DNA of 64,000 nucleotides, taken from the NCBI GenBank assembly GCA_965601925.1, contig OZ271854.1, forward strand, positions 3,200,001 through 3,264,000, read 5' to 3'. This DNA is from Alkalispirochaeta sp. (lineage in GTDB: Bacteria; Spirochaetota; Spirochaetia; DSM-27196; Alkalispirochaetaceae). Under the pieces are notes generated by a model that saw nothing but the letters and a program-made list of their open reading frames with translations, had not been told where the DNA came from and did not search any database. How positions within the stretch are numbered: position 1 is the stretch's first letter; each line of letters opens with the position of its first letter. Below, piece after piece: positions 47,292 to 50,578 of this stretch. The translations under genes were made by a program, and so were the position numbers.

Positions 47292-48460
47292 GCTCACTCA
47301 TTCAATTCTTCAGAAGTAACATTCGGCAGAACGGCATGGTCATGGCTCTGGTCTTCATCATGGTGCTGTTTCAGATACTGACCCGAGGAATTCTCTTCCG
47401 TCCGATGAACATTACCAACCTCGTGCTCCAGAACAGCTACATCTTGATTCTTGCAATCGGCATGCTTCTGTGTATTCTCACCGGTAACATCGACCTTTCG
47501 GTCGGATCGGTCGTCGCCTTCGTCGGCGCGGTCGCGGCGGTGATGATGGTCAACATGGATATCGGTGTCGCTCCGACGATAGTCGTATCACTTGCGATCG
47601 GCATCGTCGTCGGGATGTTTCACGGCGCGTTTATCGCGTTTGCCCGCATTCCGGCCTTCATCGTCACGCTTGCGGGAATGTTGATTTTTCGCGGCCTCAC
47701 CCTCGTGATTCTCAAGGGCCAAACGATCGGTCCCTTTGAGCGATCCTTCCAAAGCATCGCCGCCGGCTACCTTCCGGGGCGCGAGATCGAGATCGCGGGA
47801 TACAACGTAGTAGCTCTCGTCGTCGGAGTTGTGCTGTCGGTGTATTTCGTCATTGCGCTCCTCATGAGTCGCGCCGGTAAGGCGCGCTACGGATTCGATG
47901 TTCCGCCGGTCGGTATCGAGATCGCCCGTATCGTCTTCATCGTCGCTGCGATAAACGTGTTGACGCTGAGTTTGGCGGCGCATAACGGCATTCCGATCAT
48001 CTTGGTCCTGCTCTCGGCACTCATTCTGCTCTATACCTTCATCACCCGTAAGACTGTGTTCGGGCGTCATATCTATGCGTTGGGTGGAAATGAGAAGGCG
48101 GCGCGGCTCTCGGGCGTCAAAACGCAGAGGGTCATGTTTCTGGTCTACACCAATATGGGACTCTTGGCCGCGTTGGCGGGATTAGTCGTCGCGGGACGAC
48201 TCAACGCAGCCACGCCCAAGGCGGGCACGATGTTCGAGCTCGACGCGATCGCCGCCGCGTTCATCGGTGGTGCGTCCGCCTCGGGCGGTATCGGAACGGT
48301 CGTCGGCGCCGTCGTCGGCGGCCTGGTCATGGGTGTGCTCAACAACGGGATGTCCATCATGGGCGTAAGCGTCGATTGGCAGCAGGCGATAAAAGGGCTC
48401 GTACTCCTTGCCGCCGTCAGCTTCGATGTCTACACGAAAAACAAGGCCCACACCTCCTAA
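47288..48460 (+). CDS. gguB: Sugar ABC permease (GguB/MmsB)
   Basis: [36 protein letters not shown]. Confidence 0.94.
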
Positions 48461-48527
48461 CCGACGACGTAGGCGTTCGACCGGAAATCGGTGGTCCTTC
48501 GAGCACCGAATGTAGTACCCTTGTCGC

Positions 48528-48704
48528 ATGAAGACGAATATGCTCGATACGAGCCGGCGTCGTACGGATCGGCGGCCGGTGCCCATCGGCGTGCGCACAG
48601 TTCAAGCCGCGTCGCGCATTCCCGATGGTCGTCAAACCCGTGCACGTACCCTTTCCCGTATCCTTCCCGTCTCCTCTCCCTGTCTTTGCCTCTGCTGTTG
48701 TTGA
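48528..48704 (+). CDS. Putative polycysteine leader peptide (58 aa, ends PCLCLCCC*)
   Basis: Hand translation; 5 Cys in the last 7 codons, 90 nt upstream of cysE; too short for the ORF track. Confidence 0.7.
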   Translation: MKTNMLDTSRRRTDRRPVPIGVRTVQAASRIPDGRQTRARTLSRILPVSSPCLCLCCC

Positions 48705-48794
48705 ACCTGCTCGCCAACTCCTAATTGTGGGCCTCGAAAACGGTACGCATCGTTCTCGGGGCAACGAGTCTCATAGTACGAAGGATGTACCGTC

Positions 48795-49640
48795 ATGAAG
48801 AACATCACAACACTTATCGACGATTTGCAGGAGAGTCATCGCAATCCGAGCCGCGGCCTCCCGTCTCGACGGGGCACTGCACAGTTTTTGGACGAATTGT
48901 TGGCGCTCCTCTTTCCACATTTCGCCTACGACGAACGCTACGGCTCATCCGAGGAGATTGCCGCCGCATTCATTCGTATCGAGCGACGCCTGCACCACCT
49001 CCTCGCTCCGCTGGAGGACCGCATGGAGCTGACATCGGAGGAGGGCGCGAGGGCGTTTTTGGACCATCTGCCGGCGGTGTATACGCTCCTGCAGGAAGAT
49101 GCGGCGGCGATCTACAACGGTGATCCCGCCGCCGAGTCGGTCGACGAGGTCGTTGCCGCCTATCCCGGCTTTTTCGCTATTGCGGCGTACCGCGTCGCGC
49201 ACTGCTTTTATCGCTCCGGCGTACCGGTCTTTCCGCGCATCATCACCGAGTACGCGCATCTGCGTACCGGGGTCGACATTCATCCCGGCGCCGAAATCGG
49301 GCGCGCCTTTTTCATCGACCACGCCACGGGCATCGTCATCGGCGAGACGACCAGGATCGGCAACCACGTGAAGATCTACCAAGGCGTCACGCTGGGGGCG
49401 TTGAGTGTCTCCAAAGAGATGCACAGCACCAAGCGCCACCCCACCATTGAGGATCGCGTTATCGTCTACTCGAACGCGACGATTCTCGGCGGCGACACGG
49501 TCGTGGGGCACGACAGTGTCATCGGCGGCAACTCGTGGGTCACCTCCAGCATCGAGCCGTACTCGGTTGTGTACAACCGCGCGGAGGTGCGTGTGCGCAA
49601 TACGCGCTCCTCGGACCATGAAATAATGTTTCACATCTAA
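48795..49640 (+). CDS. cysE: Serine O-acetyltransferase
   Basis: [36 protein letters not shown]. Confidence 0.95.
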
Positions 49641-49663: not shown

Positions 49664-50578
49664 ATGAAGATCGATACCATGTTAGAGGCGATCGGAAATA
49701 CGCCGCACCTCAGACTTAATCACCTCTACGACGAGCGGCACGAGGTATGGATGAAACTCGAACGTTCCAACCCCGGTGGGAGTATCAAGGATCGTATCGC
49801 CCTCTCGATGGTCGAGGCGGCCGAGCGCGACGGGCTCCTCTCGCCGGGTGGAACGATTATAGAGCCCACCTCGGGCAATACCGGCGTCGGCCTCGCGCTC
49901 GTTGGAGCGGTAAAGGGGTATCGGGTAATCCTGGTAATGCCCGAGTCGATGTCGATGGAGCGTCGACGGCTCATGGCGGTCTACGGCGCCGATTTCGAAC
50001 TCACACCCCGGGGCGAGGGCATGAAAGGGGCGATTCGTCGAGCCGAGGAGCTGACCGTCGAGCTCGACGGAGCGTGGATGCCCATGCAGTTCGCCAACCC
50101 CGCCAATCCCGCGATACACGAGGAGCGTACCGCCGCCGAAATCGCGGAGGATTTTCCCGACGGGCTGGACTACCTCATAACCGGCGTCGGAACCGGCGGG
50201 CACATCACCGGCGTCGCACGGCGGTTGAAAACGCTCTGGCCCGATGTGCGCGTTATCGCCGTGGAGCCGGCCGACTCGCCGGTGCTCAGCGGCGGTGAGC
50301 CGGCGAGCCACGCCATTCAGGGTATCGGCGCCGGCTTCATCCCCGAGGTCATGGATCAATCGCTTCTCGACGGAGTGGCGACGGTTACCAAAGCTGAGGC
50401 GTTCGAGTACGCCCGTCGCGCCGCCCGCGAAGAGGGAGCGCTCGTCGGCATTAGTTCCGGTGCGTCCCTGGCCGCAGTCGCCAAGAGGCTGGCGAACGAG
50501 ACCGAGCCGCGGCGCGTGCTGACCTTTTGCTACGATACCGGAGAGCGTTATCTCTCGATGGAAGACTTTTACATGTAG
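49664..50578 (+). CDS. cysK: Cysteine synthase A
   Basis: [12 protein letters not shown] lysine, [27 protein letters not shown]. Confidence 0.96.

Follow-up and report, generated by a model that had tools for sequence, protein, structure and literature searches.

A candidate cysteine-sensing leader ORF ahead of cysE-cysK in a spirochaete, and its possible control of Rho-dependent termination

The window, a stretch of 64,000 nucleotides from a 5.05-Mb genome of 60% G+C (G000), carries a two-gene unit for cysteine synthesis. The first gene, cysE (48795..49640, +), was assigned by profile matches and a tree to a serine O-acetyltransferase of an EpsC-type clade common to Calditrichota and Bacteroidota; its product scored above the cut-off of NF041874 (EpsC-type) and below that of TIGR01172. 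It is followed by cysK (49664..50578, +), the last gene of the unit, whose product exceeded the TIGR01139 cut-off and which is read as cysteine synthase A; the next gene is convergent. On the other side the neighbour is gguB, the permease gene of a sugar ABC operon, which ends at 48460. FlaA gave three matches in G000 and none in 14 control genomes, and the closest named relatives of the cysE carry the labels Spirochaetales and Alkalispirochaeta sp.

Between gguB and cysE lies an ORF of 58 codons (48528..48704, +) that runs from ATG 48528 to TGA 48702-48704 and ends in CLCLCCC-stop. All five of its Cys codons (52, 54, 56, 57 and 58; 48681..48701, +) fall within the final seven; by analogy with mycobacteria, as described in the accessible text of 10.1101/834739, they are predicted to be the site at which a ribosome stalls when Cys-tRNA is scarce. 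These five codons and the 90-nt distance to cysE were first pointed out in an earlier note on this DNA and were confirmed when the sequence was re-read, as were its statements that no SD-like word precedes the ATG, that TACCCT stands 6 nt upstream (48516-48521), that the 3' part of the ORF is C/T-rich and that a hairpin-polyU terminator is lacking, the search for the latter having returned none. The untranslated 90-nt spacer (48705..48794, +) likewise holds no intrinsic terminator, and none was found between the end of gguB and the ORF. The cysE gene has an SD of its own, GAAGGAT at 48780-48786, before its ATG at 48795, and local folding encloses this SD in a predicted hairpin (48740-48793) that could serve as a polymerase pause.

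Among 4,240 intergenic upstream-ORF candidates of the genome (ATG-started, 5-80 codons, ending near a gene on the same strand, nested starts kept separate, with our own calls of 4,104 genes as the gene set), this was the sole ORF with at least four Cys in seven codons. When the 334-nt intergenic region was shuffled with dinucleotides preserved, five Cys in seven codons appeared in none of 20,000 shuffles and an ATG ORF with four Cys in seven codons in nine. The leader ORF showed no sequence difference across contigs of three public runs, which come from one sample that is possibly the window's own source. Neither a protein homologue of the peptide nor an NCBIfam family match up to E 10 was found, short ORFs being poor queries; an Rfam search gave two matches, both far under their gathering scores, and the whole leader folded no better than its shuffles (z +0.93). 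A second ORF of 57 codons without SD (48625-48798, +) starts within the leader in another frame, and its stop overlaps the cysE ATG; it is probably a chance ORF.

The TACCCT hexamer with its GTAG extension (48512..48521, +) is a predicted -10 element, based on motif counts and on conservation in congeners. Of the 2,241 ATG genes with an upstream gap of at least 40 nt, 137 have the pattern TAnnnT at a distance of exactly 6 nt from the ATG, compared with 24-39 genes at spacers of 12-29. SD-like words precede 9 of these 137 genes versus 786 of all 2,241, and a TTG-like -35 is seen in the group. The excess at this one spacing and the depletion of SD words indicate that leaderless genes are a real class in G000. 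The -35 region of the leader ORF itself is poor and its promoter matrix score weak, with 20% of 629 random TAnnnT-N6-ATG sites scoring as high. The extended form GTAGTACYCT-N6-ATG has a single occurrence in the genome, at the leader ATG, and in six congeners (L002-L007), which have neither the leader nor an adjacent cysK, the same motif sits at the same spacing directly on the cysE ATG; it is missing in four other congeners with a stand-alone cysE. One conserved promoter with its start site at the ATG would be the simplest reading of this pattern. Such conservation across congeners is stronger evidence for a leaderless start than the site's own score and, together with the geometry, supports leaderless initiation of the leader ORF.

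An Ile-rich leaderless candidate at C1:2204676-2204759 was rejected as an artefact, being the miscalled start of a longer ORF. Leaderless geometry was also observed for a 9-codon ORF (G000:C1:753448-753477, -) that has four Lys codons at its end and lies 96 nt upstream of a gene of 216 aa, and for a second cysK/cysM paralogue (L240; G000:C1:3985927-3986805, -) of 39-44% identity. In this paralogue type a 45-nt upstream sequence, possibly a repressor site, is conserved in nine congener loci (L240, L235-L239, L244, L246 and L248).

Within the order, this cysE clade was present in 13 of 99 genomes, all in one family (f1), and no other family among 401 genomes of the class contained it. Adjacent cysE and cysK were found in three of the 13, and two of these three have the poly-Cys leader: G000 and a congener, G002. 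The earlier note had made its proposal depend on conservation of the Cys run upstream of cysE in relatives; the run does recur in G002, but it is missing from G019, where cysE-cysK shows a 61-nt gap and no leader, and from congeners with this cysE and no cysK (ten genomes, with no leader in the nine that have enough upstream sequence). The G002 leader (L012) is an ORF of 43 codons with the run CCCCPCQCC, TAnnnT 6 nt before the ATG and no SD, and it overlaps the cysE start by 26 nt. Its architecture is that of the G000 leader and the two have no alignable sequence; a three-way DNA alignment that included L137 gave a mean column identity of 56% and was uninformative. Among 27 cysK/cysM loci of the family only G000 and G002 showed a leader, and 30 further spirochaete cysK loci outside the family (L033-L061; L062-L063 counted apart) held no convincing Cys-run leader; L035 has a four-Cys frame, but it lies 393 nt away. 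In a quick cysE tree, L002-L007 group with G000 and G002 (SH-aLRT 93). These congeners may have lost the leader and cysK together, or both may have been gained in G000 and G002. Another type of cysK, 54-56% identical, is carried by many congeners (L222-L234, L242) and was not found in G000, in G019 or in G002, a genome that is 80% complete; the cysE-cysK unit may have taken its place.

Poly-Cys leaders before this operon were also found in Calditrichota, Bacteroidota and Kryptoniota. After de-duplication, 94 cysE-cysK loci had 200 nt or more of upstream sequence; an sORF with at least four Cys in eight codons was present in 8 of 94 on the sense strand, G000 and G002 included, versus 0 of 94 on the antisense strand; for loci with cysE alone the count was 1 of 39 versus none. 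In the phylum of the Calditrichota genome G771, 25 of 86 genomes have this cysE clade, and the poly-Cys leader was seen in 7 of the 25 in sense versus 0 of 25 in antisense. At least three Cys were present in 10 of the 25, four loci having less than 230 nt upstream.

Tabulation of 21 leaders (L137 counted once, as L249, and eight three-Cys frames, L019, L116, L126, L132, L174, L197, L211 and L219, left out as scattered) revealed two designs that are nearly exclusive of each other. In ten leaders (L064, L066, L067, L071, L086, L093, L149, L150, L157 and L267) a terminator search located a hairpin with U-tract before cysE(-cysK); they come from Bacteroidota, Kryptoniota and metagenome contigs, with a single one from the G771 phylum, and the 45 nt ahead of their Cys runs contain 17-25 pyrimidines, 4-11 of them C. 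In another ten, namely those of G000 and G002 plus eight from the G771 phylum that are SD-led, the terminator is absent and the same interval, which for short leaders takes in 5' untranslated sequence, contains 27-37 pyrimidines, C numbering 14-23 and G 2-9. L263 alone fits neither design. Since the ten tract-type leaders are related, forming about three clades, nominal p values overstate the case; all fall into one group of 23 rows in the quick cysE tree, with weak support (SH-aLRT 84), which suggests a shared origin. The rho gene was found in all four Calditrichota tested and not in G002 at its 80% completeness. Four Calditrichota genomes (G771, G778, G781 and G786) each have a second, shorter rho-like match under the curated cut-off.

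The G000 tract (48636..48680, +) is internal to the ORF and immediately precedes the first Cys codon; its composition of C23 T13 G5 A4 makes it a predicted Rho loading (rut) site. About 1 in 10,000 of the 45-nt windows of this genome are equally pyrimidine-rich, and when 4,103 upstream regions were ranked by their best 60-nt window, this one came first in pyrimidine content and within the top 14 for C minus G. The bias extends to synonymous sites. At four-fold degenerate third positions of the G000 tract, 13 of 14 bases are pyrimidines and none is G, which makes up 36% of such positions genome-wide. For the 15 codons before the Cys run in all ten tract-type leaders, pyrimidines occupy 82 of 95 such positions and G five, whereas the 5' parts of these ORFs have pyrimidines at 50 of 100 and the cysE genes that follow at 684 of 1,233. 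The amino acids meanwhile vary across the ten, the Cys run alone recurring. We therefore attribute the constraint on the tract to the RNA and not to the peptide. Pyrimidine tracts as such are weak predictors of Rho action.

Uniqueness in the genome, position, recurrence in a congener and in three other phyla, and promoter conservation together make a cysteine-sensing leader well supported, as the earlier note had proposed; we regard cysteine sensing by this ORF as very likely. That note left the output as either Rho-dependent or translational attenuation. Here the comparative data favour Rho, owing to the C/U tract with its synonymous bias and its near-exclusion of intrinsic terminators, and the SD pairing of the translational alternative is not supported in G000. 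Rho as the output is put forward with clearly less assurance than the sensing, as probable. The explanation we prefer, with moderate confidence, is thus a leaderless cysteine sensor ORF that heads cysE-cysK and would control Rho-dependent termination through its internal C/U tract. Transcription would start at the leader ATG, and the ribosome would begin reading at the very first base of the mRNA. Given ample Cys-tRNA, it would complete the ORF and come off at TGA 48702; the tract would then lie free, and Rho would load on it to catch the polymerase in the 90-nt spacer or in early cysE. If Cys-tRNA ran short, the ribosome would halt at codons 52-58, over the 3' end of the tract and between tract and polymerase, thereby blocking Rho so that cysE-cysK would be transcribed. 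The peptide itself is probably irrelevant. Points against this explanation are the occurrence of the leader in just two spirochaete genomes, whose leaders do not align convincingly, the G019 operon without one, the poor -35 and weak promoter score, the failure to find rho in G002, the drop in the cost of opening the cysE ribosome-binding site on stalling in G002 and three Calditrichota leaders (given below), and the translational mode of the tested mycobacterial case.

The sensor could instead act on translation, as in Ms5788A, an experimentally tested precedent in mycobacteria (10.1101/834739, accessible text): the leader would pair with the cysE SD unless a stalled ribosome covered it, and any effect of Rho would be secondary polarity. 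The earlier note had matched ATCCTTC at 48660-48666 to the cysE SD, and the complementarity is there, with leader-SD pairing appearing in the minimum-energy fold, but a functional pairing is not supported in this genome, the match being at chance level. The G000 tract-SD duplex of -15.3 kcal/mol was equalled or bettered by 68% of 1,401 other SD-bearing start regions, 8% of shuffled tracts reached it as well, and shuffled versions of the Cys codons pair better with the SD region than the codons themselves. The predicted cost of opening the cysE ribosome-binding site is 7.5 kcal/mol in the free leader and 7.4 kcal/mol with a ribosome at the stop, while placing the ribosome on the first Cys gives 6.5, on the middle one 6.2 and on the last 7.8 kcal/mol, Cys masking shifting the cost by about 1 kcal/mol; it barely changes on stalling because the local hairpin can replace the long-range helix. 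G002 is the exception, and lends some support to SD control: pairing of its Cys codons with the SD region is predicted (p about 0.03), and the opening cost falls by about 5 kcal/mol on stalling (12.2 to 6.5-7.5 kcal/mol). For the eight Calditrichota leaders the duplex p values ranged from 0.16 to 0.997, and while the opening cost dropped by 3-7 kcal/mol on stalling in L249, L253 and L254, it changed little or rose in the other five. We consider translational control unlikely, though it deserves to be taken seriously.

Three further accounts were considered. The output might be mRNA decay that depends on whether ribosomes cover the C/U tract, or hand-over of ribosomes to cysE, which would suit the want of both a terminator and a good anti-SD; single-stranded pyrimidine tracts can be nuclease entry sites. 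Spacers of 90-233 nt argue against coupling, however, and enrichment of C with depletion of G even at 40-46% G+C would point more to a rut site than to a cleavage site rich in A/U, which leaves this output improbable in our estimate. Still less credence is given to the ORF being an untranslated relic or a chance frame, with the operon constitutive or read through from the sugar ABC operon. The lack of a terminator after gguB (ending at 48460), the weak promoter score, and the congeners that keep cysE with neither cysK nor leader all speak for it; the genome-wide uniqueness and the shuffle test, an intact ATG at the conserved promoter spacing and an intact synonymous-site bias speak against it. 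That the peptide acts in trans, as a metal-binding peptide or a RiPP precursor, would suit a Cys-rich C-terminus, and the Kryptoniota leader L064 does match a TOMM precursor model, below its cut-off (19.1 of 35 bits). Against this stand the absence of any homologue or family match for the leader ORF, the variation of everything but the Cys run, and a neighbourhood with a sugar ABC transporter on one side and cysE-cysK on the other, in which none of the genes examined encodes a modifying enzyme; we hold a role in trans to be very improbable.

A run of cognate codons before a biosynthetic operon is familiar from hisL, trpL and thrL, the classical leader-peptide attenuators. The present leader shares this feature with them and with the Bacteroidota terminator-type Cys leaders, which precede the same cysE-cysK operon. 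Unlike classical attenuators it has no terminator hairpin with U-tract, whereas the same search found such a terminator in each of ten other leaders. A survey by Lopatovskaya et al. from 2010, said to be a comparative study of attenuation, may hold predictions of this kind.

The nearest functional parallels come from mycobacteria, where polycysteine leaderless sORFs include Ms5788A, and Rv2334A before cysK1-cysE (Canestrari et al., 10.1101/834739, accessible text). As in those sORFs, leaderless geometry goes with an unannotated ORF that has two or more Cys codons in a row towards its C-terminal end and is the first ORF ahead of cysteine-related genes, here heading a cysteine-synthesis operon. 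The differences are the phylum, the order cysE-cysK, and a single locus in place of a multi-locus ribulon. According to the same source Ms5788A works by pairing of the Cys tract with the downstream SD, translationally and without termination. In G000 such pairing is at chance level with no predicted switch, and the C/U tract within the ORF points to Rho. Since SD pairing and detectable homology are both lacking, we do not file the leader as a member of the mycobacterial group.

Closer in output are actinobacterial leader peptides predicted for cys operons by Seliverstov et al. (PMC1262725, accessible text), who proposed Rho from polypyrimidine motifs between ORF and gene and called these motifs not conserved and the prediction weak. 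A Cys run near the stop, no terminator and polypyrimidine sequence are common to both; in our case the ORF itself contains the tract, upstream of its Cys run, and ten leaders show it, with synonymous bias. In tnaC, speFL and Bordetella cruR the rut site is located in or next to the leader ORF (within it for cruR) and is covered by a stalled ribosome, and the stall is brought about by an arrest peptide with its ligand, Trp, ornithine or copper (PMC12360218, accessible text). By composition G000 has such a C-rich, G-poor rut-like tract, and a rho gene is present with no intrinsic terminator in the leader, as for Rho-gated uORFs. Unlike in those systems, the stall here would come from hungry codons, and no conserved arrest-peptide motif was found among the ten tract-type leaders.

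The word cysteine does not occur in the main text of the review PMC12360218, and the accessible text of PMC13236596, 10.1101/2022.06.01.494293 and PMC10319736 contains no case linking cysteine to Rho. Nor was a report of cysteine leader ORFs in spirochaetes, Calditrichota or Bacteroidota found in the literature searched, in which subscription journals are thinly covered; the earlier note's remark that it knew of none in spirochaetes agrees with this. Going by sequence, the leader would very likely work as a sensor in the manner of the mycobacterial poly-Cys leaders, probably with a Rho-type design of which that literature yielded no other example among them.

More broadly, these leaders may form a class of amino-acid attenuators of their own: hungry Cys codons would gate Rho directly, and the rut site would be written into synonymous positions of the leader. 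Such a class would be common to Calditrichota and Alkalispirochaeta-like spirochaetes and would have travelled between phyla with one cysE-cysK clade, being rewired from SD-led in the former to leaderless in the latter, and it would be interchangeable with the terminator version of Bacteroidota. Taken jointly, these points are advanced tentatively, as a possibility that falls somewhat short of an even chance.

Within the searchable literature, cysteine-sensing leader ORFs have been tested in mycobacteria only, and the worked-out case is translational (10.1101/834739, accessible text). A link to Rho was suggested for Cys leaders in 2005, as a weak prediction (PMC1262725, accessible text). In this locus and its Calditrichota counterparts a defined and mutable candidate rut site inside the leader, together with the contrast to terminator-type leaders on the same operon, now makes this old idea directly testable. 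If the leader works as proposed, spirochaetes would possess a ribosome-read amino-acid sensor built on leaderless initiation, and one sensor, the Cys run, would have been plugged into different outputs in different lineages.
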